From Mobula hypostoma (taxonomy: Eukaryota), in the NCBI RefSeq assembly GCF_963921235.1, contig NC_086108.1, forward strand, positions 67,954,001-68,018,000: 64,000 nt of DNA, in the 5' to 3' direction. Positions within the stretch are counted from its first letter, which is position 1. The number at the start of each line of letters is the position of its first letter. The translations under genes and the position numbers were made by a program. The notes beneath the pieces are model-generated. The model was not told where the DNA came from. It was given only the letters and a program-made list of their open reading frames with translations, and searched no databases. Shown here one piece after another: positions 1-27,538 of this stretch.

Positions 1-51
1 ATTGGGAAGCTTTTAAAAACTAACAGAAAGCAATTAAAAAGGTCATTCGAT

Positions 52-184
52 CACAAACAAGAGAAAATCTGCAGTTGCTGGAAATCCAAACAATACCCAC
101 AAAAAGCTGGAGGAATTCAGCAGGCCAGGCAGCATCTATGGAAAAGGGTGTAGTTAAGGTTTCGGGCCGAGACCCTTCAGCAGC
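52..184 (-). mobile_element. Penelope-like element (PLE) terminal-repeat fragment with degenerate hammerhead core
   Basis: Same module as 24150-24245 and 43891-43990 (CAGCAGGCCAGGCAGCATCT...TTTCGGGCCGAGACCCTTC). Minus strand reads CTGCTGA-AGGGTCTCGGCCC-GAAA, so the core is mutated. Confidence 0.75.
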
Positions 185-776
185 ATTCATTTCAAGAGGA
201 CTAGAATATAAGAACAAAGATGTAATACTGAAGCTTTATAATGCATTGGTCAGACCACACTTTGAATATTATGAGCAGTTTTGGCCCCTTCTCTCAGAAA
301 AGATGTGGAGGTCCAGAGGAGGTTTACGAGAATGATTTTGGGAATGAAAGGAGCTCTGGTCCTGTACTTGATGGAGTTTATAAGAATGAGGAAGGATCTC
401 ATTGAAACACATTGAATATTGAAAGGCTCTGATAAAGTGGATGCAGAAAGTATGTTTCCTATAGAGGGGGAGTCTCGGATCAGAGGGCACAATGTCAGAA
501 TAGAGGGACATCCATTTCGAATAGAGATGAGAAAGAATTACTTTAGCCAGAGGGTAGTAAATCTGTGGAATTCGTTCCCATAGATGGCTGTGGAGGCCAA
601 GTCATTGGGTATATTTCAAGCAGAAGTTGATAGGTTCTTGATTAGTCGAGGTATTAAAGGTTATGGGGAGAAGGCAAAAGAGGGGTTGAGAGGGATAATA
701 AATAAGCCATGATGGAATGATGGAGCAGGCTTAATAGGTCAAATGGCCTAAATCTGCATCTTTGTCTTATGGTCTA
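185..776 (+). mobile_element. CR1 LINE 3' fragment
   Basis: AFISRGLEYKNKDVILKLYNALVRPHFEY..QFW (CR1 ORF2 C-terminus), then the typical 3' region (TTTAGCCAGAGGGTAGTAAATCTGTGGAATTC) ending in TCTTATGGTCTA. Confidence 0.9.
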
Positions 777-874
777 AATCAGATGCATTACAGTATATGC
801 ACGCACATTCCCAAATTACATATTCATTAGGTGCATAATGCATCAACAGCGCAGTACTGAAAATCACTCGGACA

Positions 875-1012
875 CATAAACTCAAGAGATTCTGCAGATA
901 ATAGAAATCCTGAGCAACATACATAAAATAGGGGAGGAACTCAGCAAGTCAGGCAGCATCTAAGGAGGAAATAAAGAGTGAATATTTGGGCTGAGACCCT
1001 TCATCATGACAC
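875..1012 (-). mobile_element. PLE terminal-repeat fragment (decayed hammerhead)
   Basis: TTCTGCAGAT...GGAACTCAGCAAGTCAGGCAGCATCT...GGGCTGAGACCCTTCATCA, homologous to the other PLE ends. Confidence 0.7.
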
Positions 1013-1751
1013 TGAGTGTCTTACTACCAGTTACTAAATAACACACACATTTTAAAACATTTGTATTTGTATTCTCCAGTACCATTTTATGGCACTAAGT
1101 TTGACCTAATGCTGTCAAAAGCAGTGCAATCTTTACCAATTCTGAAGGCTCTAGAAATGATATTTAAACGGTCAGTGATACCACTATCCAGACTGCTGCA
1201 TACCGCTCTACAAACTCAGCTTAAGCTGCACACTGTTCTTACTGAAAGCTCATCTTTCTCAACATGATCAAACTCTTTGGTACAAATAAAATTGCCCTAT
1301 TCACCTTATTTCCAACCCTCCACTTCAAAGATGACATGTCAGAAACATTATCCAGAAACATACGTGGACAATGATGCATTTAAATGCTCAGCTCTCAACA
1401 CTTCATCTAGTCAGTCTTCACAAGGTGTGTTACCATCCTTGCAAAGCAATGTCCTTGCAGCCTATGCTGCTGGAAAGTAGTTCTCATTCATACCTTCAAC
1501 TTAATAAATTCTCAAATACAGTTTTATCCACATGTCTGCAGTTTGCACATGATTAAATTCAAGGTCATCCTCAATAACAACTTCCATGCCTGCACTCATT
1601 ACAACGTAGCTGCTCGCTGCTACATCAGGGAGATCATTGAAGTTCTTCAAGACAAAACTTGATCGACTTCATTGTCCCCATAGGAGCAGACAGAAAGACC
1701 AAGGGTATTTGTGTAGCCAGTCATAGATTACACTCTTGTAGCCAACATCAA

Positions 1752-1790
1752 TTACATTACTTACTTACATTACTTACATTACTTACATTA
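1752..1790. repeat. Short tandem repeat, ~9-bp unit TTACATTAC
   Basis: attacattacttacttacattacttacattacttacatta read directly. Confidence 0.85.
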
Positions 1791-3704
1791 GAACATATTC
1801 AGTAATTGAAAAGAATTACACTGTCTCAATTTGTACTTGGTGCTGAAGCAACTAAGGACCATTGCACAACATAGTTCTGCAAAAGCTGGTAGCTCACATT
1901 ATTCATCATTCTTGCTTAGCCAGGTGCAGCTGCTTCACTAAAAATTAGATCTCAGTGTCTACACCGCTCTGCCAATGCTCTCCAGTATTCAGCAGCAAGA
2001 TTGCCCGTCTTTTACAGGCCTGCTATCTGCTGCCAAATTTGACCATCAGATAATCTCAACCACTGTCTATCAACATCCAGCAAGGGAAGACTGCGCTGTG
2101 ATGAGATATTTGATCCTGAAAAGATTCATGATATCTAGTCCTCGCTGCACATTCATTCTTAAACACCCACAGGGTCACTTAAAACATTACATTATTACAG
2201 GGGTAGTCTGCAATTTTTACCGCGTAAACAGGTTGCAACAAATAAACATTGTCCATGTTTATTTAATGAATTAAATTGGATTCAAACTATTTGCATCATA
2301 AACAGCAAGCTGAAATTCCCAAATTAGTTATCAAATTGTTACAATGAAAACTAACTTGGAGATGGAAATTTAATTCAATAAGTTCAGCTGTCGTCCTTTT
2401 GAAGACTTACAAAAATATCCCAACTGCATCTGGATTTAATCCCACTGATGGCTCATGCAGGAAGTCCTTCTGAAAACCATTTACAAACAAGTCTCACCAC
2501 ATGGCTGAGATCAAGTTGACCAATAGATATATGATATCATAACAATAAAAATAGCAGAACTGCTTAGTAAGACATAAGACCACTTAATAATTTCCTCCTA
2601 AACCAACAGATTACTTCTGCACTTGCTTATGAAATACTCTCTAATGGTGACATTTGAAATTGCAGCTGGTCCTTTAAAATTAGAGCTCATTTGGCACATC
2701 AACCAGAACATTTACAGATCAAACAAATTTGACAACCACACTGAGATGTTACTGTTTCCATTAGACTTTTGTGAAAGAAACACTGGAACCTTTTTTCAAC
2801 TAGTTATCTGTCTCTACTTATCTGAGCTTCTTAAATATTGACTGTTGAACAATGGCCATACAGCAGTTCAAACAGCAAGGCGTGAAGCACAGAATGCCCT
2901 TCATGTGTTTGGCACCCCTAAGACCATAAGACATAGGAACAGAATTATGCCATTTAACCCATCAAATCTGCTCCACCATACATTCATGGCTGATCCTTTT
3001 TTCTCCTCCTCAACCTTATTCAAGATGGCTTCATATTTTCAAAGGCACCTCAGATCACTGGCAGCTGGCTCTCCTTTTGAGTATAAGCTCATCATGGTGT
3101 CTCTGTATCTATGTAGTTATTTCTGAGAAAACTGCCTCTTTGTTAGTCATCATTATAAGTCTTTGGATGACATTAAATCATCATACCATTAGGGAGTCAG
3201 ACAGCAGCAACCTGCCACTAGCATTGCTGATTGATCATTGATGCTTGACTCCACAGAATCAACTGGGTAGCTGCATATGGATGGATGACATGGCATTCTA
3301 AATTGTCCTTCTACTGCTTTATCCACTAATGGAAAGTATGAAGGTTACCTAAGGATATCCATAATACAAGAATGATGCTTGGTGCTCATGCATCTTGTGA
3401 TATATATGATGCAAGTTGCAGTTACTTACATTAGACTTCACCAGAGACAGTGCAATACTGGACCTCCTAATAAAGAATGGAATGGGGCAGGTGACTGAAG
3501 TGAGTGTAGAGGACCACTTTGGATCTAGAGATGTTAATTCCAGAAGTTCCAAGATAATTATGAAGAAAGATAGGTCTGGTCATCAGGTTTAAATAGCATC
3601 AACAGGAATCTGGAGGGCACAGATGGGGATAGGTTGTTTTGTTTCAAAGAGATGCTTGGTAAGTGGAAGGCCTTCAAAAGTATAAAATATTCAGAGTATT
3701 GAAT

Positions 3705-4083
3705 CTGTATGTTCACCTCTCTGCCCCTCTATTAGGGAGAGAGAAAGCCTATCATATGTCAAATTGTGAGGTGAATGATTAGTTTTGGTTGAACTGCAGA
3801 TCATGGTCTTTCTTGGGGGCTTTGCTATTGCTTGCTTAGAGGGTGGAGGGTGCCAATGCTTTTGGCCAATGTAAGTGGGGGAGGGGGAAGGGCCGATGCT
3901 TTGCTGCTGCTTGTACATGGGAGGGAGGAGTGGGGGGGGGCTCTGGGGTTCTAACAGTTTTACTGTCACATTATTTGGGGCACTCCAGTTTTCATGGATG
4001 TCTGCAAAGGACAAGAATTTCATGTTGTATGCTGGGTACATCTCTATATTAAATGGAACTATTGAAACTACTGAACTATTGAA
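3705..4083 (+). mobile_element. Non-autonomous retroelement 3' part (same family as 16889-19811 and 41367-41650)
   Basis: Shared TATTAGGGAGAGAGA..., GGGGTTCTAAC, GGGGCACTC, and a tail ending in repeated CTATTGAA. Confidence 0.75.
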
Positions 4084-5629
4084 TAAAAGGCAAAGCTCAC
4101 AGGTTTAAGTAACCTTTAGTATCAAAGATTATTGAAGCCCTGCTAAAGAAAAAGAAGGAAGCACATATCAGGTACTGGCAGTTATGATCAAATAAGGTAC
4201 TTGAGAAGTATGAGAAATGCAAGAGAACAATTAAGAGAGAAATCAAGAGGGCTAAAATAGGCAGCTGTGGCAGACAAGGTAAAAGAGAATCCCAAGGGAT
4301 TCTCTATCTATATTAAGAACTGAAGAATGGCAAGGAACAAAATTGGTCCTCTTAAAAATCTGCGTGGACGTCTATGAATGGAGCCAAAAGAGATGGGGGA
4401 GATCTTAAATGGAATTTTTGCATCTGTATTTACTCAGGAGACAGACACAGAAACTATAAACCTCTGTAACAACAAGGGCATGGACTGTATCCAGATTATA
4501 GAAGAGGAGGTACTTGCTGTCTTGAGGTGAATTATGGTGGATAAATTCCGAGGGCCTGACAAGGAGTTCTCTCAGACCTTGGAGGAGGCTAGTGTAGAAA
4601 TTGCTGAGATTTCTGGCAAAGATGTTTAAAATATCATTAATCACAGCTGAGGTGCAGGAGGACCAGAGGATACCCAATCTTGTTCTGTTGTTTAAGAAAG
4701 GTTCTAAGAATAAGATGAGAAATTATATGCCAGTGAACCTAATCTTGGATAAATTATGGGAAGGTATTCCAAGAGACCAGATATATTTGGATAGACAGGC
4801 CCTGATTAGGGATAGTCAACATGGCTTTAAGCATAGCGGGTCACATCCACCAGATCTTTTTCAAGGTTTTTCGAGGAAGTTACAAAAAAGGTTGATGAAG
4901 GAAAGGTGGTGGACGCTGTCTACATGGATTTTAGCAATGTCTTTGTCTAAGTCCCATATGGGAGGCTGTTCCAGAAAGTTGTGTTGCTTGACATTCAGGA
5001 TAAAGTAGTCAAATAGATTCAACATTGTCATAGCAGGAGAAGCCAAAGAGTGGTATTAGATGATTGTCTCTCTGACTCGAGACCAGTGACTAGAGATGTG
5101 TAGCAGGTATCGCTGCTAGATCCATTGTTGTTTATTATCTATATTAATAATTTATATTATAATGTGGTACAATGAATCAGCAAATTTGCCAATGACATCA
5201 AGTTTGGGGACATACCAGACAAGAAGGAAGGCTGTGAAAGCTTGCAAAGGAATCTGGACCAGCTTGGAAAATGGGCTAAGAAATGACAGATGAAATTTAA
5301 TGTGTAGAAATGTAAGCTTTTCACTTTGGGAGGACAATCCAGAGGAAGACTTATACAGTGAATGGTAAGGTATTAATGTGTGCAGTACAACAAAGGGATC
5401 TGAAAATACAAATACATAATTCGTTGAACGAGACAGCACAGATAGATAATGTTGTAAAGAGAGCTTTTGGCACATGAACCCTTACATGGTTGGGGCTGTG
5501 GATTTCAACTGTAGTAGTCCTAAATGGGAATATTTGATGATTCCCTTTGAAACTGTATGCAAAGAGTTGCTGCTTTCAGGCACCATCTTGGCGGAAGCAT
5601 CATGGAGAGCATTCTAATTGTCAGATACG

Positions 5630-5960
5630 GAGGGGCCACTGCATAGGATCAAAACAAGCTGCAGAAAGGTTCAAACTCAGCCAGCTATATCACAGGTACT
5701 AGTCCAGGATTGAGGACGTCTTCAAATGGCAATTTCTCAAAAAGATGGCATCCATCTTTAAGGACCCCCATCACCCAGAACATGCCTTCTTCTCAATGCT
5801 ATCATCAAAAAGGAGTACAGGAGCCTCAAGACACACACTCAACATTTTAGGAATAGTTTCTTCCCCTCTGCCATCATACTTCTGAATGGACAATGAACAG
5901 TACCTCACTATTTTTTCTTTATTTTGCCCTCTTTTTGCACTACTCATTTAATTTAATCTT

Positions 5961-6033
<73 letters not shown>

Positions 6034-6143
6034 TTCTTATTGTAAGTTATAGCTTTTTTAAAATTATGCATTGCACTGTACTGCTGCCGCAAAACAACAA
6101 TTCCACAACATATGCCAGTGATGTTAAACCTGATTCTGAATCT
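5630..6143 (+). mobile_element. Rex1/Babar-type LINE 3' fragment containing a (TG)n tract
   Basis: ASIFKDPHHPEHAFFSMLSSKRS...NSFFP-type C-terminus, and a tail ending AAACCTGATTCTGAATCT. Confidence 0.7.
5971..6027. repeat. (TG)n microsatellite flanked by (TA)n
   Basis: Direct reading. Confidence 0.98.
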
Positions 6144-6589
6144 CATTCATTGGCCTTCATAAATCAGGCATCCAGTACAGGAGTTGGGATGTTATGTTGA
6201 AGTTGTTTAAAACATTGGTAAAGCCAAATTTCAAGTATTTTGTGCAGTTCCGGCCACCTAGTTATAGGAAAGCATAAACAGAGTTCAGGGGAAACTGTAA
6301 GTGGATGCTACCAGGACACGAGGACATGATGGACAGAGATAGCTTAGATAGGCAAGGAATTTATTCCCTGGAATGCAGGACATTGAGGGGTGATCTTACA
6401 GAGGTATACAGAATTATGAGGGATATAGATAGGATGAATAAATGCAGGCTTTCTCCCCCTCAGGCTTGGTGAGACTAGAACTACAGGTCATATTTAACAG
6501 GAATCTGAGGGGGATCTTCTTCATTTGGAAATTGGAGGCAACTTCATGAAGTCCTACAGCCTTCGATAACCCTGTTACTTCAATTTCTG

Positions 6590-7305
6590 AGGCCAAAATG
6601 ACAGCATCCTGCAGGAGTGTGCCGAGCTCAGAGGGGATACCTAGCCAAGTACTAATGACCTATGCTGATCAACTGGCTGGAATATTCACTGAAATCATTA
6701 ACCTCTTGTTTTGGCAGTCTGAGGTACCAATCTGCTTCAAGCAGATTTCAATCATACTGGTGCCTAAGAAGAACATGGTAACCTGTCTCAGTGACTGTCC
6801 TCTAGTAGCACTAACATCTACTGTGATGAAGTGCTTTGAGAGGTTGGTGATGAAACAAATCAACTCCTGCCCGAGAAGCCACTTGGATCCACTCCAGTTT
6901 GCCTACCATCACAGCAGGTCAACAGCAGATGCCATATCATTGATTCTTCACTGAATGCTAGAACATCTGAGCAGTGAAGATGCAAACATCAGATTATTCT
7001 TCATTGTACACACCTTGCCATTCAATACTATCACCCCCTCAAAACTAATCAATAAGCTCTAAGACCCAGGACTCAATACCTCCTGGTGCAACTGGATCAT
7101 TGATTTCCTCACCTCCAGACCCCAGTTGGTTCAGACTGTCCAAAGCACCTCCTCTACAATCACCATCAGCGCAGGTGCTTTGCTCTCTGCTCTACTTGCT
7201 TTATACTTATAATTGTGAGGCTAAGCCCAACCCCAATCCCATGCTTTAGTTTGTTGATAATACTACAATCTTTGTTGAATCAAAGGTGGTGATGAATCAA
7301 CATAG
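6590..7305 (+). mobile_element. Rex1/Babar-type LINE reverse transcriptase fragment
   Basis: ORF 6598-6954: ADQLAGIFTEIINL..VPICFK..IILVPKK..VALTSTVMKCFERLV..LDPLQFAY, typical non-LTR RT of the Rex1/Babar-L2 group. Confidence 0.85.
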
Positions 7306-7307
7306 AG

Positions 7308-8755
7308 AAGATAAGACCATAAGATAGATGAGCAGAACTAAGCCATTTTACCCATTGAGTCTGCTTTGCCATTGCATCATGAAATGATCCATTTTACCTT
7401 TCAGCCCCAAAATCCTGTTTTTTCCCTGTATCCCTTCATGCCCTGACCTATCAAGAATCTATCAATCTCTGCCTTAAATATACCTAAGTACCTAGCCTCC
7501 ACTGCTGCCTGTGGCAAAGAATTCCACAGAGTCACCACTTTCTAGCTAAAGAAATTCCTCTTCATCTTCATTCTAAAAGGACACCCCTCTACTCTGAGGC
7601 TGTGTCTTCTGGTCCTAGACTCTCCTATCATAGAAAACATTCTAGCACATATACTCTATTGAGGCCATTCACCATTCAATAGGTTTCAATTAGGTCACCC
7701 CCTCTTCTTCTGAATTCTAGTGAATACACGCCCAGAGCCATCAAACTTTCTTCCTATGACATGCCGTCCAATCCTGGAGTCACTTTCCTGAGCCTCCTTT
7801 GAACCCTCTTCAGTGTCAGCACTTCCTCTCTAAGATAGGTGTCCCAAAACTGCTCACAATATTCCCAGTGAGGCTTCACCAGTGCTTTATGAAGTCTCAT
7901 CATTACATCCTTGCTTCTATATTCTAGTCCTCTTGAAATGAACGCCCACATCGCACGTGCCCATGTGCCCTCCTCACCACTGAATCAACCTGCAAATTAA
8001 CCTTCAGGGAAATCTGCACAAGAATGCCTAAGTCCTTTTGTGCCTCAGAATTTCTTTAATTTTCTCGCCATTCAGAAAATAGTCTGCCCTTTTATTTCTG
8101 CTACCAAAGTGCATGATCATACTCTTTCCAACATTGTATTCCATCTGCCATTTCTTTGCCCATTCTCCTAATCTGTCTAGGTCCTTCTATAGCCTCTCTA
8201 ATTCTTGAAAACTACCTGCCCCTCCACCAATCTTCGTATTGTTTGCAGACTTTGGAACAAAGCCATCAATTCCACTATCCAAATCACTGACATATAACAT
8301 AAAAAGAATCAGTACCAACATAGACCCCTGTGGAACACTATGTCATCAGCAGCCAACCAGAAAAGGCTCCCTTTATTCCCACTCTTTGTCTCCTGCCAAT
8401 CAGCCACTGCTTTATCCATGTTAGTATCTTTCCTGTAATACCATGGTCTCATAGCTTGTTAAGCAGCCTTATGTGTGGCACCTTGTCAAACACCTTCTGA
8501 AAAGCCATGTACACAACATCAACCAATTCTCCTTTGTCTATCCTGCTTATTTTATCAAAGGTTTCCAACAGATTTGTCAGGCAAGATTTTCCCTTGAGGC
8601 AACCGTGCTGACTACAGCCTATTTTATCACGTGGCTCCAGATCCATTTCAGAATCTAGTGATTCTTGAAAGATCACAATTTCTTCAGCCACCCTTCAAAA
8701 GCCTGGGTTTATACCATCTGGTCCAGGTGACGTATCTACCTTCAGACCTTTCAGT
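7308..8755 (-). mobile_element. CR1 LINE, RT plus 3' end
   Basis: SQHGCLKGKSCLTNLLE..VDVVYMAFQKVFDKVPH (8449-8691) and AFISRGLEYRSKDVMMRLHKALVKPH (7754-7951); tail at ~7310. Confidence 0.92.
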
Positions 8756-9204
8756 GGTCTTCCCGTTAGGAAGTCAAGGATCCAATTGCAGAGGAAGGTA
8801 CTGACTAACTGCTGCATCATCATGACACCCTCTTGATATGTGTATTGCTGTCAGTTTTTCAGCTGGTTAATTTCATGTCCTCTGAATGTATGAGAGAGAA
8901 TGGTTGTATGGTGAATGGCTGTAGGTGCAGATCCTGCAGTTAAAGACATTTGTACCAACAGATATGCTAAGGTGCAATATAATAATGCTTCATGGATTTC
9001 TGTCAGCCTCCATTCTGGTGCCCGAGACTATCCTGCCCCAGCACCCATCAGTAACCAACCCAGTAACCTGGCCCAGTCTCACTCTTCCAGAGACATCAGC
9101 CTGCTCTCCAAAATTGGCTCCCACCCAGTCTCAAGTACCATCTGCCTACTCCTGAGCATCATCAGATGCAATCAATGGCAATTCTGAAAGCCTACTGAGT
9201 ACCC

Positions 9205-9348
9205 ATAAAATTGTGATTTTTTTTTTTGCTCGTTGGATGTTTGATTTTTCTTTTGAACGGGTTTCTTTGTTTTGTGGCTGCCTGTGGAAGGAAGAATTTC
9301 AGAGTTGTATTCTGTATACATACTTTGACAATAAACGTGCTTTGAATC
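9205..9348 (+). mobile_element. LINE-derived 3' tail fragment (Rex/Babar-type)
   Basis: GGCTGCCTGTGGAAGGAAGAATTTCAGAGTTGTAT...TACTTTGACAATAAA, the same tail as 34580-34660 and 23680-23750 (minus). Confidence 0.65.
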
Positions 9349-9572
9349 AAACTCCCCGGAAACCTGCTAACATCAGGAGGGTTTAGCATATCCTCTTGAA
9401 CAAGGGGCATATCTCCTGCAGTTAATACTGCCATTCCACCTATCTTTCCAAGGTGGGAGCATACAATCTGCTCTGAGAAATCTGTGGTACAGCCAGCTGT
9501 GAGTAAGCAGCTTTCTCTAGACAATGGAAGAGTGCCAATGACATTGGGCATATGTGCCTTTAAACAGATGAT

Positions 9573-9670
9573 TTTCTCTCTCTTTCTTTCTCTCCATCTC
9601 TCTCTCTCCATCTCTCTTTCTCCATCTCTCTCTCTCCATCTCACTCTATCTCTATCTCTCTCTATCTCTC
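9573..9670. repeat. Imperfect (CT)n/CTCCAT/CTAT microsatellite
   Basis: Direct reading. Confidence 0.95.
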
Positions 9671-9877
9671 ATAAAAAAAGGGAAAAAATCAAGCTCGATA
9701 GCTGTATGTTGTAGCTTCAAGTAGAACTTCAAATACAGTTCTGCCGTAATATAAATGACGTGAAATAGGAATTAATGCTCTTCTTTATAATTTATTTTTA
9801 TATGTTCATCATAATCTATTTATAATGAAGGTACCCTTAATCAGCAATCAATTTGAGAGGTGTAAAAGACAACTTAC

Positions 9878-9966
9878 CTTGACATACAAATGATGCAGAT
9901 ATTCCCCAGGGTGATCATGGACTCTGATGAAAATGACCTTTTGCTCTGCTCCTGGACAGAGATTCA
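9878..9966 (-). CDS. AGBL4: Internal exon of cytosolic carboxypeptidase 6 (zinc-ligand HPGE exon); frameshifted as assembled
   Basis: Minus strand: tttatttccttttctccccag|TG AAT CTC TGT CCA GGA GCA GAG CAA AAG GTC ATT TTC ATC AGA GTC CAT GAT CAC CCT GGG GAA TA TCT GCA TCA TTT GTA TGT CAA G|gtaagt = NLCPGAEQKVIFIRVHDHPGE(x)SASFVCQ-G. Compare recalled human AGBL4 NLREGAEQKVVFITGRVHPGETPSSFVCQ-G. Canonical acceptor and donor. Confidence 0.88.
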
Positions 9967-10689
9967 CTGGGGAGAAAAGGAAATAAACAAGAGTCAGAGT
10001 TAGGCATATTGCAAAGCACTCCTGTCTGATGCTCTATTTCGTATTCTCAGTTTGTTAGATACCAAATCATTTCAGCTCATTACACAACAGTAGATGCTTT
10101 AGCCTAGTTAAAACAGTACTGCTGAAAATTAAGTAAGAGTCTTGGAATAAAACAATTTATGCAAACTTTCTTCGAGCTTTGTCTCTTTTGAATGAACATT
10201 GATCAGCAAGATGTTTGAAATTGTGTTAGTGATGAACAAATCAAGTGTTTGCATTTTATCTTGATGGAATTTTTTCACAGCTGGCAAAAGAAATTCTGCA
10301 GTAAATTTAAGATTATTTAAGTATACTTAGTTTAATTTTATCCATTCTGACAAACCTTATTTTTAGTGAGATTCACAATTGCAGCAGTTTTCTTGTCTTT
10401 TATTCTTGCTGGCAAAACAAATAAGAAACATTTCCCTAATAAAAATTATGTTTATGTTTATGTTTTTTTACGATCACAAGATAATGCTAGATACTAAGAA
10501 TATCAACTAAAGCAGGTCTACCCATCAGTAAGTTGCTTGATAGCAATGAAGCTGCGTATCGTGCAGTCATCTGGGCTTCTTGTGTACAGTCATTGTGCTG
10601 AAGCCATGCACAGTCCAACAATCGGTGCAAGTGATAGTCATGGATAGCTGGACCAGAACAACATCCCATGTACTATCAATCTATAGACC

Positions 10690-10870
10690 ATGCCACTCTG
10701 AGACTTGGGATATATTGTTTTTGAGACTGTATGTTTTCCTGCTGACATAACTATATGTGCTATGTGCTTCTACTGTTGAAACTGTGTTTTGCACTTTGAC
10801 CCAGAGGAACGCTGTTTCACTTGACTGTATTCTTGCTGAATGAAAACTAAACTTCAACTTCAACTTGAAC
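10690..10870 (+). mobile_element. LINE 3' tail fragment ending in (AACTTC)n
   Basis: TGTGTTTTGCACTTTGACCCAGAGGAACGCTGTTTC, shared with 15575-15610; tail AAACTTCAACTTCAACTTGAAC. Confidence 0.6.
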
Positions 10871-10877
10871 ATAAACA

Positions 10878-11050
10878 AAAACTGCTGATGCTGTCAAACT
10901 AAAACAAAAAATGTTGGAAACAGCAGTGTGGCAGTATCTGTGGAAAGAGGAACAGAGGTAACATTTTAGATCAAAGTACATTTGTCAGAACGAAAAAGAA
11001 AGGAAAAGCTTATTTTTCCAGTTGGAGAGAAGGAAATGGATGTATAGGAT
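10878..11050 (-). mobile_element. Old PLE terminal fragment
   Basis: ACTGCTGATGCTG...GGCAGTATCTGTGGAAAGAGGAACAGAGGTAACATTT...TTTGTCAGAAC, a diverged form of the PLE/hammerhead module. Confidence 0.55.
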
Positions 11051-12284
11051 AAAGGGAGGATGACCTTTGACTGTCATCATCCTCTGCCTTCTGTGCGCAA
11101 GACAATTCCAAATCCACACAGCCAAATTCCCATGGGTACTATACCTCATGATTCAATATGACAAAACAGAACCAGTTAATATGTCTTTTAATAATCAAAG
11201 AATTAATCACTGATATCACACTGATCACTGATCCAAAGTTCCAGTGAAAGTTTGAGAATCAGCTTATACAATGTTGTGATTCAATCGTCAACCTCTCAAT
11301 ATACATTCCTTTCAAGTACAACTTTCAAATCATTTTGTATAGAAAATTGAAATAAAGCTCATTCAGTTATTAACTACCCATCCATAAACATCGGTGGAAT
11401 AACATTCAGAAAAATTTGATCTCATTGGATATATTATTAATCAAATGACAAACAAGAAGGATCAGTTGGTCAGCAGGCAGGGTGCCACAACATATCTCAT
11501 AGACACCTCACGGGGAAAGCCACACAACAGGAAAAAGGGGAAGTCTTTTAATTAAACTAATCTGACATTTAGTATGAACATTTCAGGCTGTGATGTGCAA
11601 ATGAAGTGATATAGTAGGCTAGTTGTCTTCACCTGTGATTCTCTTGGCCAGGACATGAGATAAACATAATTACTGTTTGGACATTTATTCACAGGAAAAA
11701 GGAAATATTGCTATTCTCCTCACTTTAGTGTAGAAGGATTTCAGCATTGGCTGTGACTGGGAAACAATTCAACTACCCATACTTTTGGTTGACGATTGGG
11801 CCATCTGGGTGAAATGCCCATAAATGGAAATACTTAAGGCAGCTTGGCTTAGCTCACAGGGAGGGAACAGCAGCTTATAATAAAAGAGTTGATGTTAGCA
11901 TTTTTCATAAAGTTGACACTTGTCAACCTTTTTAACTACTCATTGTTAATATTATATCTATTAACTGCTTTTCAAGGACACTCACCAGATGTGCATTGAA
12001 TAAATCTGATATGCTTTTAAAGCTGCACATAGTAACAGATGAATATGTAATAACTAAACATAGATTTGTTTGATACATATTTCTAAAGCTTGTATTTATT
12101 GCTAGAATTATAAATACTTAAATTATTACTTAATTACACAAAAATTGTACATTCAACATATATCATCAGTATTGCCGGACAGGTGACCACTGCAGTAAAA
12201 CACTATTGGCCAAGACTAACGTATACTCTATTTAGTAATCTATAACATAACATACTGAACGAAGGAAAATAAAGCAAAACAGTA

Positions 12285-12362
12285 AATTCTGATGAAGAGT
12301 ATTTGACTTGAAAAATACACTGTTTCTTTTGCTACAGCTGCTGACTGGTCTGCTAAGTGTTC
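12285..12362 (+). mobile_element. Old PLE terminal fragment retaining CTGATGA...GAAA
   Basis: TTCTGATGA-AGAGTATTTGACTT-GAAA followed by CTGTTTCTTTT..CAGCTGCTGACTGGTCTGCTAAGT, the reverse complement of the PLE module. Confidence 0.5.
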
Positions 12363-15124
12363 AGCTTATGTTTTATTGAAACATCAAAACTTAGATAAAA
12401 TCTACCATAAGAATTTGCACAACACATACTCTGTTATGCACTGTAATTCATCATCAATGACATTTCTGAAGTTTTATACATTTTGTTAATGTGACAAAAT
12501 CTGAAGTTTAGCAAATCCATATCATGCCTCTAAGCTGGTAAAAGTTAATACCATCTCCTCTAATAGAATACATAATTACAGTTAAAGAGAGTAAGACTCC
12601 ACAAGAAGCAGACTAATGGTGTAGTCCTTACTGCGAGTGGGAGAAGTTAATTAAATAATGCTTGTGTAAGGGAAAGTTCAAAAGTGAAGTATTAAGTTAA
12701 AGACTCAGAGTTTGGTGATGGGGGGTGGTGTTAGACATATGGGTAAGTATGGAATGATGGCAGAAGCATGATTAAGCCAGCAAGTTTAATAACGATGTCA
12801 TGGTTGGTTCTCAATGTTCGGGGATTGGAAAAGTTAAGACTGAGGGGATGGTTAACACATGGAGGAGGAAGGAAATGGGGCAGAGATGGAGTCAAAGGAA
12901 AAGGAATGGAGGAGAAAGGTCAGAAAAGGTATTGCAATCCAGGAGCTAGTTATTGAAATTTGTCATCAGAAAGGTAGGTAAAACGTTGTCTGCTGCAGAC
13001 CCCACTGCTGCAGAGAATAAAATGGAACTGTAGATGCTGATATCTTTGAGATAAAAAGATGCCCTTGTGTTGCAGAGAGAGGCCAAGAACATGATGTGCT
13101 GATTTATGGCAAAAAGCATGAATGTTAGGATACAATGAGAACATTGTCTCAAGAAAGATTGGCTAGTTTGAACTTCCATGTAGCATTGCAAATCTCAGGG
13201 CATCATTTTTTCAGGGAATCTTTCTTCTGTGCCAGCAGATCAAATGCAAGTTGATGAAAGCATATTTTTTGCACTTGATAAATACCTATTTGCATTGATG
13301 GTCATGAGAGTGCCAGATATTGGATGGAGAATGAAGCCACAAAGGCAAATGCAAATCTCCACTCGCTGCTGAAGTCTGCACAATTCCAAGCTCTTGAAGC
13401 ATCATTTTTGCTCCTGACTTTTTTTCAGTGATGTTCATGAAAGAATCTGAGGCAAAAAGTCAGATGGCTGCTGTGACTCAAACAGCTTCCAAGTCTTTAA
13501 AGCTACCATATTCCATAAGTAATAATCCTTTTCTGACAAACTGGATTCACCACAAACATGATGGCCTCAGGCTGCAGAAGTACTGTCCTTCAGAGAGATC
13601 ATAAAGTTCCACCATATCCTGCTGCTAGATTGTACTCCCACTTCAATACCTCCCATTTTATTTTTAATACCCTCCTGGCCCTAACTCACCTGCTTTGGGC
13701 ACTAAACACTTTCATCATTTTGTGTTTGTTCAGTACAAAAGCTAGACATTTGCAATTGGTTTAAATTAAGAACATAAATGAAAAAATACAGAAAAAAAGG
13801 TGGAATGATCAAATTATTGATGCAAAGATTTCAAAGGCAAGCATTCACTGTGGAAGATTCAGCTCAAATATACAAAGCTATTTTTCAGAAATCTTTCAAT
13901 CTGAGCTACAGTTCCAAGTTTACAAACTTTGAATGGTCAGTTTAAAGTATAGAAATTGTGTTATTTTCATTAAAATTCTATTCAGGTTCCTTATATACAA
14001 ATACTATTGCAACTTTAGAAAATCAAATCCACCCTTAATACATGTGTATCAGCAAATGCTTATCTGACTCCACTTAAATATTATTGTTCAAAGGTGTTCA
14101 AAACAAATAAAAAGATATGGTTTAAGTACAAAGATGCAAGAAATTTAGAACAGGGAATAATGGAATGGGCAATTGACCAGCAATCTACCCTTTGGATTCA
14201 CTGCCACAAAACAGAATTTTATTTTTTTTCAATATGGGATTCAGAGGGTTTCTGTCGAGTATTAAATAATTGATTTGCTTGCATGGATCAGAAGCAGAAG
14301 TCTAAGTCTAAATTAGATCCAGTTCAATATTACAGACAAGCTGCAAACATCCTGTCACAGCCCAGAGGCAGGATGTGATTGCAGGATTAAATTCGGTCAC
14401 TTGTCCCTCAGGATAGTGGTTTTCATGCAAGTCTTGTGGGGGAAGGGAGGAGACCAAGAAGAGAGGAAGGATGGCAAATGAAAACTATAGCACTTTTGTT
14501 TGGTTGCACACAAAGATGAATATGGAACAAACTTTTCCATTCCTAGAAGGCCAAGGAATGGCTTTTTGACATTCCAAAAGTAAGTTTGAGATGTCCCCTT
14601 TCAGCTGATGATGCTCAACAATCCCATTCCTGAATCCATTGAAGTGAATAATTGGCATGTCTCATTCAGAAGCACTAGCATTTACAAGCAAACGCATGCA
14701 GTAGGAATCAGGTTTATGGCATAATTGTAACTTGTCCTGCAGTCTGCTGTAAGAATAGAGTGGCTGATGAGAGATCAAAGATCTTCCTGAAACTTGTGGA
14801 GTCCTAAACTAGAGATATAAATTAGAGATATGTGCCCCTGATGGCACATTGATTCAATATTGCCAAAGTCAAACCTGGCATCCTAAATCAAAAGGGAATG
14901 ATTCTTCAGAGCTAGTGAAACAGGCTCTCAACTGCAGGTAAGTAGAACATTGAAAATACGAGCCTGTTTAGGTCACTTAGAAAGAGTTACTGACTCTCTG
15001 GTGACCACAAATTCTTCCAAAGTATTTTAAAATTCCAATATTTATCAGGAAATTTGGTACAGTCTTTTACTTCACATAAAATAAAACAGCGAAGTACATA
15101 ATCAATAATGTAGGTACAGAAAAA

Positions 15125-15612
15125 ATGGCATTGGTGAGAATGTCCTGATCACCATCTAGTACAGGAATTTCAAGGCACCTGACCACAAGATCCTGCAATG
15201 GATTACGAGGACTGCTGAGAGAATTATCTAGGTCTCTCCTCCCTCACCATTCAGGACGTGTACCAGAAGGGCTGCGTTCACGGAGCTCTCAGTCTTGTTA
15301 AGGACTCTTCTCATCCATCCCACAATCTCATTGACTTCCTGCAGTCAGGCAGAAGGTACCACAGCATACGAGCAAGGACCGTTCAGCTTCTTCCCCCAGG
15401 CTGATAGACTTTTGAACACCCTGCTAGCAGACAGTCACATTATGACAATGCCAGTTGCATTATATTGTTGTATACTGAACTCTGTCATATATGAAATTCA
15501 TGTCAACACATTTTTTTCTTTTTATTTTATTAACTGTTTATATTATTGTTAATGGTATTTTATGAAATATGTACTGTGTTTTGCACTTTGGTCCCAAAGA
15601 AATGTTGTTTCC
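15125..15612 (+). mobile_element. Rex1/Babar-type LINE 3' fragment
   Basis: ILQWITRTAERII..., DSSHPSHNL.., SFFPQADRLLNT; tail shared with 10690-10870. Confidence 0.75.
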
Positions 15613-15699
15613 TGACCTGCAAAGTTCCTCCAGCATTTTGTGTGAATTGTTTCTTTTAGCTCTATGCAAGGTACATTTGAATGACAACAGGTATAGATC

Positions 15700-16065
15700 T
15701 AGGTGTGTGGTGGAAAGTATATTGACTGGTTGCATCACAGCCTGGTATGGAAACACTAATGCCCTTGAATGGAAAATCCTACAAAAAGTAATGGATAGGG
15801 CCCAGTCCATCATGGTCCTCCCAACTATTGAGCACATGTAAAATGAGTGTTGTCGTGGGAAAGCAGCTTCCATCATCAGGGACCCCCACCACCCAGGTCA
15901 TGATCGCTTCTCACTGCTGCCATTAGGAAGAAGGTGCAGGAGCCTCAGGACTCTCACCACCAGGTTCAGGAACAGTTATTATCCTCGACCATCAGGCTCT
16001 TGAACCAGTGAGGATAGCTTCACTGAATTTCACATGCCCCATCCCTGAACTGTTCCCACCAACCT
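15700..16065 (+). mobile_element. Rex1/Babar-type LINE C-terminal fragment
   Basis: RCVVESILTGCITAWYGN..ILQKVMDRAQSI..LPTIEH, then SIIRDPHHPGH..FSLLPLGRR. Confidence 0.85.
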
Positions 16066-17671
16066 ACTTTTCCCCACTGCCATGCATTGTGCAAGTTACT
16101 TCAAGAATATCGTGATCCTGCTCAACCTAACCAAAAACCTATTAACCATTAACTTATTAATGGGAAGTGACAACACAATTATACTAGCATTGGAAGCGAG
16201 ATGAGTACACCAACTACAACAATAAAGGAACAGAATAAGGTGAACACTCGACCCATGCCTCTGTCAGCAGGACTTCAGGATCCACTAACTGAGGCCTAGT
16301 CATTCTCTGCCAGAATGTTCTATTTTACAAAGTGGCACAAAATTGAAAAATCCCACAAAGCCATAGATTGTAAGCAACAGGAAATGCTTGGTGATGTGGG
16401 AATTGCGGGGGAGGGGGGAATTGGTGGTAGCAATGGGGGAGGACAAATATATGTAGATAGAGCAGTTTGGTCATTATAGGTAAAACTATCATAGCATTGA
16501 TTGATTCTCCAATCTTCAACTATTTCTGAGCACTCAATTCAATTACCATGCTTTTTCTATGTAGCAAGCATAGCATTCAGCCCCATCAATATAGCTGAAT
16601 TTTACATTTAATCATCTTGTGCAGGATTGCTTTTTTTTGATTTTCAAGTTGACTAATAGTTAATTGAAAGACAGCATATTTCTGGCATGTATTGATTATA
16701 CTGTGAAAGTACTTGCAGTTTGTATGTTGTAATCTGAGAAACAAAGAGATATGCATTAATTCAGCAGTGACATTTCAGACCATAATATAACATAGTTTCA
16801 CTAAGCCTTAACAAATCTTAGTACTACAATGACTTGTCCATCAATAATATTGAATTTCTAACTTGAATTTTAAAAAATAATTTAATATGGAGGCACCGCA
16901 AAGTCAAGATGGCGCTGAACAGCGACTCTTTTGCTTGCATCTTCGGAAACAGCACTGTTTCTATCTTTGATAATTTTCTCCCCCTTTTCAAGCTTCTTTT
17001 GAAGACTCTGACCTGGAGTTACATTCTGACTTTGGTTCTTTGCGGGAATGGGACCCGCTGTCAGGGTCTCACGACTGGCCGCTTTTTGATATACCAAGGA
17101 CGGGGCCTGGAAGGCAAAATCAGGGCTCCGGATTTTCACAGCTCTGGAGGCGTGCTGATTCTAGACTGGTGCCCCTGACTGAAGTGTCACAGGAAAACAC
17201 GGAACATCGGGAGCAACGGGTTAGCTGCTGGGGCTCATGTGTCCAGAGAGCTCGGGAAAAGTGACACAACAGACTTCTAACATCGTAAATCAGTGAGTTG
17301 TTTGTTATGTCTCCCCTCTCGCTGTGAAATGGGGTCACCTCTTTTTCCCTTATTAGGGAAAGAGAGAGCCTGTGGTATATCGAATTACTGGGTGAACGTG
17401 TAGTTTTTGGGGTATTGCAAGCCTGTGTCTTTATTGATGCTTTGCTGCAGGCTTGAGTGCTTGGTGGACGGTGCTGTTGCTTTTTTGCTGGTGGGGGCAG
17501 GGGGGAGTGGTCATTGCCTTGCTGCTGCTTATGCATGGGAGGGGGAGCTGGGGGGACCTAGGGGTTCTAACGTTTAACTGTCATACATCCTTTGGGGCAC
17601 TCCTCTGTTTTTCTGGATGTTTATGAAGAAAAGGAATTTTAGGATATACAGTTGAAGTCAGAAGTTTACAT

Positions 17672-18177
17672 TGAATTGAACTGAATGATCTTTATTGTCA
17701 TTATACATAGGTACAATGAAACTCTGTTTGGCTTCCTCTCAGGCAATTAAATAAAGCAGTAAATAAAAACAAGACAGTAATAGAAAAACAGTATTAAATA
17801 GATAAATAGCAGAAAATAAGTTGCAGCATCACCGGAATATCACAGTAATGCACAAAGTGCCGTTAGTGCAAGTATTTGAGTCCTTGTGTGTTCATGTGTG
17901 TGCTCACAGTTCCAGTCATTGTTCTGTGGGAGTGGTGTGATGGAGGCCACAGCTCTGGGATAGAAGCTGTTCCTCAGTCTATTTGTTCTGGATTTTAGTG
18001 TCCTGAACCTTTTGCTGGACGGCAGCGGGTCAAACAGGGAGTGGCCGGGGTGTGTGGTGTCTCCGATTATGCTGATTGCTTTCCTCTTGAGTCTGCTGGA
18101 ATAGATGGTGCCCAGTCCAGGGAGCTCCATCCTGACAATTCACTGGGCCGCCTTCACCACGTGATGCAGGTCTTGTC
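17672..18177 (-). mobile_element. Rex1/Babar-type LINE 3' fragment inserted in the Tc1 outer DR
   Basis: ORF 17840-18130 ELPGLGTIYSSRLKRKAISIIGDTTHPGHSLFDPLPSSKRFRTLKSRTNRLRNSFYPRAV; tail (TTCAA/TTCAG)n at 17672-17686. Confidence 0.88.
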
Positions 18178-18370
18178 GCCAAATACACTAAAACTCAGTT
18201 TTTCACAATTCCTGATATTTAATCCTAGAAAACATTCCCTGTCTTAGGTCAGTTAGGATCACTACTTTATTTTAAGAATGTGAAATGTCAGAATAATAAT
18301 AGAATGATTTATTTCAGCTTTTATTTCTTTCATCACTTTCCCAGCGTGTCAGAAGTTTACATACACTTTG

Positions 18371-19313
18371 TTAGTATCTGGTAGAATTGCTTTTAAATTA
18401 TTTAACTTGGGTCAACTGTTTGAGGTAGCCTCCCACAAGCTTCTCACAATAAGTTGCTGGAATTTTGTTCCATTCCTCCAGACAGAACTGGTGTAACTAA
18501 GTCAGAATTGTAGGCCTCCTTGCTCGCTTTTTCAGTTCTGCCCACAGGCCAGGGCTTTGTGATGGCCACTCCAATACTTCGATTTTGTTGTCCTTAAGCA
18601 ATTTTGCTACAACTTTCGAGGTATACTTGGGGTCATTGTCCATTTGGAAGACCCATTTGCGACCGAGCTTTAACTTCCTGGCTGATGTCCTGAGATGTTG
18701 CTTCAATATATCTAGATAATTTTCCTTCCTCTTGATGCCATCTATTTTGTGAAGTGCACGAGTCCCTCCTGCAGCAAAGCACCCCCACAACATGATGCTG
18801 CCACCCCCATGCTTCATGGTTGGGATGGTGTTCTTCAGCTTGCAAGCCTCACCCTTTTTCCTCCAAACATAACGAAGGTCATTATGGCCAAACAGTTCAA
18901 TTTTTGTTTCATCAGACCAGAGGACACTTCTCTAAAAAGTAAGATCTTTGTCCCCATGTGCACTTGCAAACTGTAGTCTGGCTTTTTTATGGCAGTTTTG
19001 GAGCAGTGGCTTCTTCCTTGCTGAGCAGCCTTTCAGGTTATGTCGATATAGGACTCGTTTTACTGTGGATATAGATATTTGTCTGCCTGTTTCCTCCAGC
19101 ATCTTCACAAGGTCCTTTGCTGTTGTTCTGGGATTGATTTGCACTTATTGCGCCAAAGTACGTTCATCTCTAGGAGACAGAATGCGTCTCCTTCCTGAGC
19201 GGTATGACAGCTGCGTGGTCCCATGGTGTTTATACTTGCGTATTATTGATTGTACAGATGAACGTGGTACCTTCAGGCATTTGGAAATTGCTTCCAAGGA
19301 TGAACCAGACTTG
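18371..19313 (-). pseudogene. Tc1/Sleeping Beauty-like DD34E transposase, inactivated
   Basis: KSGSSLEAISKCLKVPRSSVQ..GRRRILSPRDER, INPRTTAKDL, ARKKPLL, WSDETKIELFG, KHGGGSIMLWGCF, FQMDNDPKYTS, WPSQSP. In-frame stops; N-terminus missing; DLNPIEN (catalytic E) deleted. Confidence 0.95.
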
Positions 19314-19322
19314 ACATCATTT

Positions 19323-19530
19323 TCTGACCTCAATCTGATAAAAAAAATTGTGGGCAGAACTGAAAAAGCATGTGCGAGCTAGGAGGCCTACAAACCTGAC
19401 TCAGTTGCAGCAGTTTTGTCTGGAGGAATGGAACAAAATTCCAGCAACTTACTGTGAGAAGCTTATGGAAGGCTATCCAAAACATTTGACCCAAGTTAAA
19501 CAACTTAAAGGCAATGCTACCAAATACTAA
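19323..19530 (+). pseudogene. Inverted second copy of the transposase C-terminus
   Basis: DLNLI..WAELKKHVRARRPTNLTQLQQFCLEEWNKIPATYCEKLMEGYPKHLTQVKQLKGNATKY*, followed by a right IR/DR. Confidence 0.93.
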
Positions 19531-22500
19531 CAAAGTGTATGTAAACTTCTGACCCACTGGGAAAGTGATGAAAGAAATAAAAGCTGAAATAAATCATTCT
19601 CTCTACTATTATTCTGACATTTCACATTCTTAAAATAAAGTAGTGATCCTAACTGACCTAAGACAGGGAATGTTTTCTAGGATTAAATGTCAGGAATTGT
19701 GAAAAACTGAGTTTAAACGTATTTGGCTAAGGTGTATGTAAACTTCTGACTTCAACTGTATATTGTACACATTTCTCTAACATAAAATGTACCTATTGAA
19801 ACCTATTGAAATTACCGGTAACATGAAGTTGAATCCAATCATTGTGTATTTTATCAATGGAAACATTAATCTCATTTTAAACTAATTTTTCTTTCATGCA
19901 GAATAAGGAGCAAATTAATATAAGCATAGCATAGAACATCAAAGATGCCCACAGGTATCTGAAGAAACCTTTGCCATTACCTAATTAATCTTGTCATTAT
20001 TAGACGTACAGTATGTTCAAATTATTACTTTCCGTAGTTAAATTCAGATTAGTTTGTTCAGCAACAGAAAATAATGCAGGAAGATTGTTGCTTCCCTACT
20101 ACACGTTTCAGTACACACATACAGTACCTATCAATACTCAGCTTTCTAAAGTGAATCATGGAACTACTCTGACTGAATCCCATGTTTACAACTTTACCAA
20201 TTTTCATTTATCTTCCATTTGTGCTGGTGAATTCAATTTCTTCCTCGGATGGAGACTCACACAAATTGTTTTCTACATGAATATATCATTACCAGCCATA
20301 GACAATAGAAGTTCCTATATATATTTTTTACAAATGCTGAGAAGACTCAAACCATGCTGATAAAAGGGCAAATGCAGCACACTTAAATGTTGTTTACAAA
20401 TGAAAAGTTAAAGTAATAGGAATTCTTCAACAGAGGTTTACTTAATAAAACATCACACACGGTCTGTAAAACACAGCACATAATTTTACAAATGCTAGAA
20501 TTCTACCATTATCTCAAAGACTACACTTACAAATTAGGGGAGCACCTTAATGATCTAATGGGACTTTCAGGAAAAAAAATAAATGAGTGATATACGGCTT
20601 TAATTTTCTGAAGAGAGTTATTAAGGTAGTTCAAATACCATATTTACTATTTTAGGGAAGGCAGAACATGCGCTGTGCATAGAATCAGAATTAGAATGAA
20701 CACCTCGAATAGTCCTCAAAGAGTTTGCTGGCAGACAATTAAAGACCTCAAAACATTTGGAAACATTTTTATTTCACCAGAAGCAGTGTCTATATTCATA
20801 AAAATCTGGATCCTCAAAATCACTGCAGAATGTTATCAAATTGCCTCAATTATCCCTGTAACTGGCTTTACAACAATTCTTTATACTTCCAAACAGCTCC
20901 CCATCATACTTAATAAGTATCAGTTAAACCTTAAATAAGGACAGTGGACGTTCTGTAGAATTTACAAAACAAAAACATAAATTATTTCCTTTCAAATTCT
21001 TTGTACCTCGAAGATACAGTTTGGAAAGATGTCATATGGGTATCATATGCACTCATAAGCAATAAGGAAATTGTAAAAAATGGAGAAAAATTAAGGTGGG
21101 AGATAAAATGAGAGTCTGAAGATTCTCTGGGGAGTCAAAACAGCATACAGAAACCTTCCACTGATTTTCAAATAATGATATTGCATCTATATTTCCATAT
21201 TATCCTCAGGTGCAGTCATTTGATCATAGTGGACACAACCGCCCTTCCCTCCTTTACAGTTAAATCTCAATAAGTCCTGTTTTCTTCAGAAATGACCAAT
21301 ATTACTTTGGGCTCCTGTTTGTCTGCAGGCTTCAGTCTGATTGGAATTTAACTTATTGGTGCCTGAAGCTACACATAACATTCTCGGATAGGGTTATGCC
21401 TGATAAATGCCTGATAAGTATCTAGCATGTAGGCAAGCAATTCACATTGGTGGTAGCACAAACCAGAACAAAGGAAAAGTAAGCATGTTTTAAAGGAAAG
21501 GAAAATAGGTAGGTATATAAACAGGTTGTCAATTTGTTCTCACAAAAGAGACTTTCTGATATTCTGATATTTTTCCAGATAAACGGACGATACCTTCCGG
21601 CAGTCTGTAACAGTTCATTCTTTCCTGGTCTGTTCTTATAGCTTTAATGAAGCTCAGTAAAACTGCTCCAAGCCTTCGTTTAATATGAGATGTTGCAGGA
21701 AATCACGTTTCACCTTACTTTAATACAGCACTTTCAACGTACTAAAAAATCATGTCTTATTCTTATGTAAAACTTGACACTATTCTACATATTAATCAAA
21801 CTGGCTAAAAAGTAAGCGATAGGAAAATATCATGTCGGTGAGGTCATGGGAGGGAATTACAAAGATAAGGCCCTGGAAGTTGAAGGAACTTCAGTTGATT
21901 CTGCAGTGAATAAAATTAAGGATGTTCAAGAGGCCGAAATCAGGAGAACAAACATATATTGAATGTTTGTAGAGATGGATTTGATTATAAAAAAACAATG
22001 GCCAAGTTCATGGAGAGACTTGAAAATTAGAATGAACATAGGTCAGCAGTATAAAGGGTAAATAGGACATCAAAACAAAGGATGAATTCAAGTATACTGT
22101 GAATAGATTAAAATAAACTGGCTGTCAAGACATAACAAAATATAGATGAAGCTCAAAGCAGATAGATTAAAGAATGAGAAGAGCTGGGTGGTGTTTTTGA
22201 AGCTTAAGGAGGCAATGTGTAGATTATTAGTTGTGACTAAGACACCAATGCTATTCAGCTTCAGACATCTGCCAGAGAGAGTGGAGAGTGATGGAATCAA
22301 TAGCTGAGTCACAAGGTTTCAACCTTTCCAACACATAGTAGGAAGAAATTTCTGCTTGTTAGATAAGCACTCTAAAATTTAGAGACAGTGAAGAGCTTGA
22401 GATAAGTGGATGAATGTTGCAAGTGGCAAATGAAGCACTAAAATAACAATCATTCAAAAGTGCTAACATGGATTTAAAAAAAACTAAATCAGATCACAGA

Positions 22501-23667
22501 CACAATATTTCTGTGTACTTGCAAACCAATGAAAAAATGTTAATAAAAACCAGGCAGTTATCACACTTATTGTGAAATTCATGGTGTTCATTGCAGGTGC
22601 GTCCGTGCATCTGACACAAAAGATGGATAGACATGTGCATCGGCATTGAACAAAGTGCAAGGCATGTTAAGAAGCCAAATTCAGGATCTCCATTTACGAA
22701 TGGACTGCATAATCCATAAGCACTCATGCAGAGGCAAATTTACAAAGTAACAATGAAGCCTGCATCAGGTCCCAGGCTGGCACTATAAATCTGACTAAAC
22801 TAAGTACCTTTCACTTAATTACTAGCTCTCTTTTGGGCCGCAACCTACAGGCTCAATACTGTATCCTGAATTCCAACATCTCTCAACAAATGCGTAACTG
22901 TCACCTGATCTTCTAACAACCCATTCCTGATCATCTCCAAAGAGGCCACATTGGACAGTACCCCATGTCCTTTATAGCAATCACCTCCCCACTCCCACCA
23001 ACCCCCAAGCTTCAACACTAAATCCATCTTAGAGAAAGCCAGATAAATTGCATTCTCCAGCTCATTGATTCCAGCTCTCAGTTCATTAGTCCTGCTCATG
23101 AATGATGAAAACATCTCTCCTGTGCAACTACCTCACTACCCCAAACAATGACCACATCCTCCCACTGAATGAAGAAACCCAAACTCTATCAATTGCAAAT
23201 AGCTGCAAATTCTGACTGGGCTAAACATTCATTTATTTAATTGGGATTATATTTTGTGGCTTTAAAGGAATACAATAAGAACCAGCACAAACAATACGCA
23301 CTAATTCTATATCATCAACATCAAGGTGCACAATAACATACTTCAAAGCACAAAACTATATATTTCATAATATACTCCTATATATTGTATTCTGGGAAGA
23401 CATACTGAAATACACGGAGTCACAGGGAATGAAATTCAGTGAAGATTGTCAAGTTTTATAATTTATAGAGGTTTATTAGGATCATGCTGAGGGATAAGAA
23501 GCTTACATCACATGGGGCATACAAGGAGATTGGCATTGCTCTCCATAGACCAAAAAAAATTAATGAGAGATTTGTCAGAGACATTATGTATGATTTTGAT
23601 AGATTAAATAAGGAGAAATAGTTCTGCCAGTGGAAGAAATATCAATTCAGAAAATACAGATGATTGA

Positions 23668-23830
23668 CAAAGTTCAAAGTAACTTTTATTATCAAAGTAC
23701 ATATATGTCACCCTATACAACCCTCAGATTCATTTCCTTGTGGGAATACTCAGCAAATCTATAGAATGTAACTATAACAGGATCAATGAAAGATGATCCA
23801 GAGTGCAGAAGACAACAAAGTGTGCAACAG
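23668..23830 (-). mobile_element. LINE 3' tail fragment
   Basis: TTTATTATCAAAGTACATATATGTCACC..ACAACCCTCAGATTCATTT is the reverse complement of the tail at 34600-34650. Confidence 0.75.
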
Positions 23831-23964
23831 CAAATGAACTGGTAATGGCATTTGTTTATGTCGTGGATTGTTGCCTGTATTGTAGTGACTGGCAAAGTAA
23901 TGGACAGTAAAGGTAAGCAAAAAGTTAGATTCACCACAGCAGAAAATACAAAAGCTTGAAAACT

Positions 23965-27502: not shown

Positions 27503-27538
27503 TTATCAAGATTCTACTTATCAAGATTCTCTTATCAA
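27503..27538. repeat. Tandem ~15-bp repeat TTATCAAGATTCTAC (2.5 copies) in an old CR1-like 3' remnant
   Basis: ttatcaagattctac-ttatcaagattctc-ttatcaa. Confidence 0.8.

Follow-up and report, generated by a model that had tools for sequence, protein, structure and literature searches.

A frameshifted zinc-ligand exon in the ray Mobula hypostoma as part of an old AGBL4/CCP6 unitary pseudogene

An 89-nt exon in the genome of Mobula hypostoma almost certainly belongs to an AGBL4/CCP6 gene that is dead but still in its normal place in this myliobatiform ray, and that likely died long ago, before the split from four relatives that carry the same frameshift. CCP6, which trims glutamate tails from microtubules, belongs to a set of six erasers of polyglutamylation; in this ray its gene is an old unitary pseudogene whose loss is shared across species. 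The exon lies in a window of 64,000 nucleotides (C50:67,954,001-68,018,000), within which the features of the dead gene are as follows.

1..9871, minus strand: downstream intron of the dead gene; the next exon, exon 8, is at C50:67875.1-67875.2 kb, ~79 kb before the window start
9872..9877, minus strand: splice donor GTAAGT, read from the sequence
9878..9966, minus strand: AGBL4/CCP6 pseudo-exon 7, 89 nt against 90 expected, phase 1-1, with the HxxE zinc ligands
9900..9901, minus strand: one-base frameshift, two bases in place of a codon, common to organisms B, D, E and F
9902..9913, minus strand: HPGE codons (zinc-ligand His and Glu), readable; Pro is changed to His in organism B and Gly to Glu in organism D
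9914..9925, minus strand: four substituted codons, sawfish T-A-R-V to R-V-H-D, from the sawfish alignment
9967..9968, minus strand: splice acceptor AG after a pyrimidine tract, read from the sequence
9969..64000, minus strand: upstream intron of the dead gene; the next recognisable exon (exon 5) is ~177 kb past the window end, at C50:68194.8 kb

The exon sequence occurs once in the 3.48-Gb genome. An earlier, sequence-only reading of the window had described an 89-nt exon with strong splice sites, and this is borne out: on the minus strand, a pyrimidine tract with AG comes just before 9966-9878, and GTAAGT just after it. Its proposal that HPGE and SASFVCQ-G are read in different frames only 2 nt apart also holds, as the NLCPG...HPGE frame runs from 9964 to 9902 and the SASFVCQ frame from 9899 to 9879, with 9901-9900 between them. 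Over exon 7, the sawfish CCP6 protein (P0123) accounts for 29 whole codons and a split codon, or 90 nt, in agreement with the 90-nt, phase 1-1 orthologous exon of the earlier reading. The first 21 codons align with the sawfish protein without gaps (16/21 residues identical, E 5e-10), and in a frameshift-aware scan of all fetched C50 loci exon 7 scored 102 against 40 for the best opposite-strand control; the match to CCP6 is far above chance. On its own the exon is too short a query for Pfam or PDB, and it had no match in either. The inactivity of the H230S/E233Q mutant of CCP6 (PMC4235637) points to a ligand role for the His and Glu of HPGE.

Immediately before HPGE, the segment that now reads R-V-H-D had been called remodelled and was counted as the second of two separate lesions in the exon. 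The residues are indeed altered, but by four codon-for-codon substitutions without any indel, and of the two proposed lesions only the frameshift stands as such, the other being a series of point substitutions. Of these, T to R is seen in the M. hypostoma genome alone, and the other three are shared with relatives. Each of the four appears reachable by one base change, which for three of the codons we infer. Six nucleotides deleted and six inserted would be another way to read the segment, but the gapless alignment rules this out, as does the Thr kept at its first codon in five other organisms. On the other side of the exon, a compound (TC)n microsatellite occupies window positions 9575-9670, ~200 nt from the donor, and the contigs of the sequence runs compared below break there.

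A search of sequence runs listed 14, from eight studies, that contain the stretch wholly or in part, and eight of these runs were compared. Five of the eight span the frameshift (X1, X6, X10, X11 and X12); X9 and X13 stop short and X5 gave no alignment, and these were not counted. The X1 contig is identical to the window and possibly comes from the same DNA source. X6, X10, X11 and X12 are organisms B, D, E and F, from four other studies, and differ from the window at 8/401, 26/610, 29/397 and 30/379 bases, respectively (2-8%), sums that for X11 and X12 leave out one short repeat-like record each. The earlier reading had called for a check against reads, and in their contigs there is no 90-nt exon: all five spanning runs have 89 nt, with 0 indels within 9878-9966. 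The exon-7 frameshift is not an assembly error. The same search listed no RNA run that contains the exon, a result that carries no information on expression.

In this comparison, which for organisms B, D, E and F covers exon 7 only, the frameshift and five replacement changes relative to sawfish (hand count) are common to all organisms, which suggests that most of the decay took place before these species split. Private replacement changes amount to ~1 per organism; those of B and D fall within HPGE. Across organisms A, B, D, E and F, five private changes in exon 7 are replacements and two are silent, a hand count of small numbers in which the private substitutions of X11 and X12, at a depth under 5, may be errors.

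Damage extends throughout the gene. We searched ~707 kb of contiguous C50 sequence (67.664-68.371 Mb), with expected lengths taken from the sawfish or a shark protein and exon lengths counted by hand from the printed sequence. Eleven of the 13 expected coding exons were found, in order and on the minus strand, from 68,349.5 to 67,719.3 kb (~630 kb). The inspection of the remaining AGBL4 exons that had been suggested thus turned up disablements almost everywhere: of the 11 exons found, 10 carry a stop, a frameshift or a deletion or have lost a splice site. Apart from exon 7, and under a numbering that is in part our assumption, the exons are as follows.

Exon 1: apparently intact
Exon 2: 108 nt against 123, 15 nt short; FKR stands in place of the FES motif
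Exon 3: interrupted by a stop and a frameshift, with eroded ends; scan score 154
Exon 5: 212 nt against 217, 5 nt short, frameshifted
Exon 8: 88 kb downstream of exon 7; 115 nt as expected, with 3 stops; reached via a paralogue exon
Exon 9: 112 nt, with 1 stop; the NR motif reads NQ (Arg to Gln)
Exon 10: 146 nt against 153, with a 7-nt deletion at its end; 97% identical over 37 residues, the highest of the exons
Exon 11: stops and a deletion
Exon 12: lacks a donor and has a deletion
Exon 13: a frameshifted remnant

Exon 4 scored 41 in the scan against 44 for the control, that is, not above background, and it has probably been deleted, since exon 3, of similar length, stands far above background. 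Exon 6, a very short query of 13 residues, scored 31 against 33. A candidate for exon 6 at window 26701-26724 was rejected as it is without splice context, and one for exon 12 in L027 proved to be CR1 sequence. NR is the carboxylate-binding motif, and it and FES are considered here in their known roles: among the catalytic motifs, HPGE is readable but is then followed by the frameshift, NR has become NQ and FES has become FKR. No continuous open frame joins the N-domain (PF18027) to the carboxypeptidase domain (PF00246), exons 3, 5, 7, 8, 9, 10 and 11 being broken, and neither Pfam family has a match on C50 although both match intact P0123.

Two further traces of the gene were seen on C50. The start of the partial Pristis CCP6 model matches intron sequence upstream of exon 2 (L028:7892-7916, C50:68,338.9 kb), and this intron end is still alignable between the order of the present genome and that of the sawfish. 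On the plus strand at L019:1909-2000 (C50:67,835.9 kb), 1.9 kb from the main exon 10, the 3' half of that exon and its donor region recur as a diverged copy in inverted orientation; this copy likely predates the 7-nt deletion because it retains the bases lost there.

The assignment of the exon to AGBL4/CCP6 is supported both by a neighbouring exon and by synteny. With X at its stop, exon 9 has chondrichthyan cytosolic carboxypeptidase 6 as its top named matches (89%; 120 of 136 matches listed). Downstream, on the same (minus) strand, are SPATA6-family exons (C50:67.667-67.682 Mb), and upstream, head-to-head on the plus strand, are ELAV-family exons (C50:68.397-68.476 Mb). These matches are at the family level; we take the paralogues to be SPATA6 and ELAVL4, and presume that the human gene order around AGBL4 has the same flanks. 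With ELAVL and SPATA6 flanks as expected, the dead copy is the orthologue and not a duplicate. A processed pseudogene is ruled out for the C50 locus, whose exons have splice sites and are spread over ~630 kb. In stickleback, Agbl4, Bend5 and Elavl4 are named as neighbours (10.1101/2023.01.30.526059).

In chimeric protein models of frog and teleosts, BEND5 sits just before the zinc-ligand exon of AGBL4. There is no trace of BEND5 in the corresponding AGBL4 intron at C50:67,964-68,194 kb, which includes window 9969-64000, and genome-wide we found only a distant paralogue (C1:242.05-242.09 Mb, 53% identical in the BEN region). Medaka is reported to be without BEND5 (10.1101/2023.01.30.526059). 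Two other features were noted in this part of the window. At 37589-39068 (plus strand) are overlapping broken frames that end in a cysteine-rich CxC stretch and have no Pfam match, which we take to resemble a decayed DNA-transposon gene; at 61592-63014 (minus strand) is a LINE fragment, presumably CR1, with an RVT_1 match (E 1e-15) and a 345-aa open frame.

When the genome was searched with the whole protein and the best 25 candidates were scored, no intact AGBL4 was found elsewhere, in an assembly that may be incomplete; besides C50, the only AGBL4-grade matches were two retrocopy fragments on C12. These fragments (L030:3077-3726 at 192.479 Mb and L031:3212-3858 at 192.813 Mb) span exons 10-12 with no introns at the junctions, are broken by stops and frameshifts and contain an insertion of ~330 nt. 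They are one old retrocopy that has been duplicated, as they are 99.5% identical over at least 3.7 kb within an inverted duplicated block with copies 334 kb apart; the block is either a recent segmental duplication or an assembly duplicate. A match on C73 (47%, E 5 genome-wide) was set aside, as it may be due to chance. Five other CCP genes, whose individual names are our presumption, have open catalytic exons (one or two exons each), on C1, C2, C45, C52 and C59.

How should the broken exon be explained? The earlier reading favoured real pseudogenisation, and the same frameshift in four other organisms together with damage in most exons upholds this. It had left room for a base-call error in an intact gene, given that the indel adjoins a GGGGAA run, but the identical 89-nt exon in four other organisms, from four other studies, refutes such an error; independent lesions in nine other exons also speak against it, and its chances are now virtually nil. 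It had also allowed for a dead duplicate of a working AGBL4 located elsewhere. Extra AGBL4 pieces do exist (the two intronless ones on C12 and the inverted exon-10 half near the main copy) and the assembly may lack sequence; against this, it is the dead copy that has the expected flanks, the C12 pieces amount to exons 10-12 with stops and frameshifts, and none of the best 25 candidates was another match of AGBL4 grade. A dead duplicate is thus very unlikely.

Two other alternatives concern what the locus still does and why it was lost. Exon 7 is symmetric, with strong splice sites, and the N-domain of CCP5 is reported to have a role independent of enzyme activity (PMC10210458), so that a shortened, non-catalytic protein might survive by skipping of exon 7 or as the N-terminal domain alone. 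We regard this as extremely improbable because the N-terminal part is itself ruined: exon 2 no longer encodes FES, a stop and a frameshift interrupt exon 3, exon 4 could not be detected, and a frameshift breaks exon 5. A different proposal accepts the pseudogene and holds that selection favoured the loss of the gene, or that a CCP6-dependent trait had been lost first. The 92-95% identity of the protein among sharks, skates and sawfish speaks for it, but the effects of CCP6 loss are described as mild both in mice (PMC4235637) and in morphant zebrafish (PMC4055263), a species whose CCP genes reportedly number only four (PMC4055263), which argues that losses in this family are tolerated; we consider selected loss unlikely, although it retains a real chance. 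We return to an old unitary pseudogene whose loss was probably tolerated. Several disablements lie at the ancestral locus, no working copy was found and the exon-7 lesion is shared.

Comparison with relatives places the loss among the rays. BEND3 shares 96% identity with a Hemitrygon cluster that also includes Hypanus and two species of Mobula; identity falls to 89% with Pristis, 83% with Narcine and 64-79% with skates and sharks, which places the genome within Myliobatiformes. The CCP6 proteins of sawfish, two skates, eight sharks and a chimaera are 85-95% identical to the sawfish protein with HPGE intact, and the 92-95% identity among sharks, skates and sawfish indicates that CCP6 is under strong selection in close relatives. 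No myliobatiform CCP6 was named among the matches listed (120 + 120), although four myliobatiform species are in the collection, and no myliobatiform was among the 15 of 23 members listed for the chondrichthyan CCP6 cluster. Because organisms B-F diverge by 2-8% and the decay is deep, we lean towards an order-wide stem loss of CCP6 in all Myliobatiformes soon after the split from sawfishes and guitarfishes, together with a lack of BEND5.

The likely course of the loss is one inactivating change on a ray branch after its split from the sawfishes, after which the exons would have decayed neutrally. Judging by the lesions, the locus should yield no protein whether exon 7 is included or skipped; skipping would be no rescue, given the stop in exon 3 and the damage to exons 5, 8, 9, 10 and 11. 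The loss may have been tolerated because CCP1 and the other four CCPs would supply deglutamylation, as in CCP6-null mice. CCP6-deficient mice are reported to have platelet defects and no obvious neurodegeneration (PMC4235637), Ccp1/Ccp6 double mutants to degenerate as Ccp1 mutants do (PMC11474369), and zebrafish ccp6 knockdown to leave ciliary glutamylation barely altered, with ccp5 as the main ciliary enzyme (PMC4055263). These mild CCP6 phenotypes in mouse and zebrafish make redundancy with the remaining CCPs our preferred cause of the tolerance, and probably the right one.

CCP6 has been linked to centrioles and cilia, spermatogenesis, antiviral activity and platelet formation (PMC9867282, PMC4235637), and it is puzzling that the protein is so strongly conserved though its knockouts are mild. 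The ray locus indicates that CCP6 is dispensable in a lineage of large vertebrates, with close relatives at 92-95% identity as a natural comparison. If the order-wide loss is true, Myliobatiformes would be a natural knockout, across an order, of a tubulin-code eraser that is near-invariant in sharks and skates, and skates and rays could be compared in neurons, cilia, sperm, thrombocytes and antiviral signalling as a test of why CCP6 is conserved. Annotators should treat the AGBL4 locus of these rays as a relic. Among the literature matches listed, a scope mostly outside subscription papers, none described a loss of AGBL4, whatever the lineage, and in the main text of a preprint on manta and devil ray genomes, supplements excluded, AGBL4, 'pseudogen' and 'carboxypeptidase' occur 0 times (10.64898/2026.10.27.761883).

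To understand how this locus relates to known systems, we compared it with the CCP6 genes of other chondrichthyans, with unitary pseudogenes and with another lineage in which the CCP family is reduced. The CCP6 proteins of Pristis pectinata (XP_051866643, P0123; partial), Amblyraja radiata (XP_032883707), Leucoraja erinacea (XP_055498452), sharks and Callorhinchus milii are orthologous to the C50 locus, which has batoid-type residues in exons 7, 8, 10 and 11. However, the chondrichthyan CCP6 proteins are annotated and have HPGE intact, whereas in Mobula 10 of 11 exons are damaged and exon 4 is undetectable. As in the vertebrate unitary pseudogenes described previously (PMC2864566), an ancestral locus is disabled, no working copy was found and lesions are shared; unitary gene loss is an ordinary kind of event, and what sets AGBL4 apart from the other cases is its unusually strong conservation among the sister groups. 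The zebrafish CCPs resemble those of the ray in that the lineage is without two of the six CCP genes, only ccp1, 2, 5 and 6 being described as present (PMC4055263), but zebrafish keep ccp6 (PMC4055263), whereas it is CCP6 that the ray has lost, leaving a remnant that is still readable.
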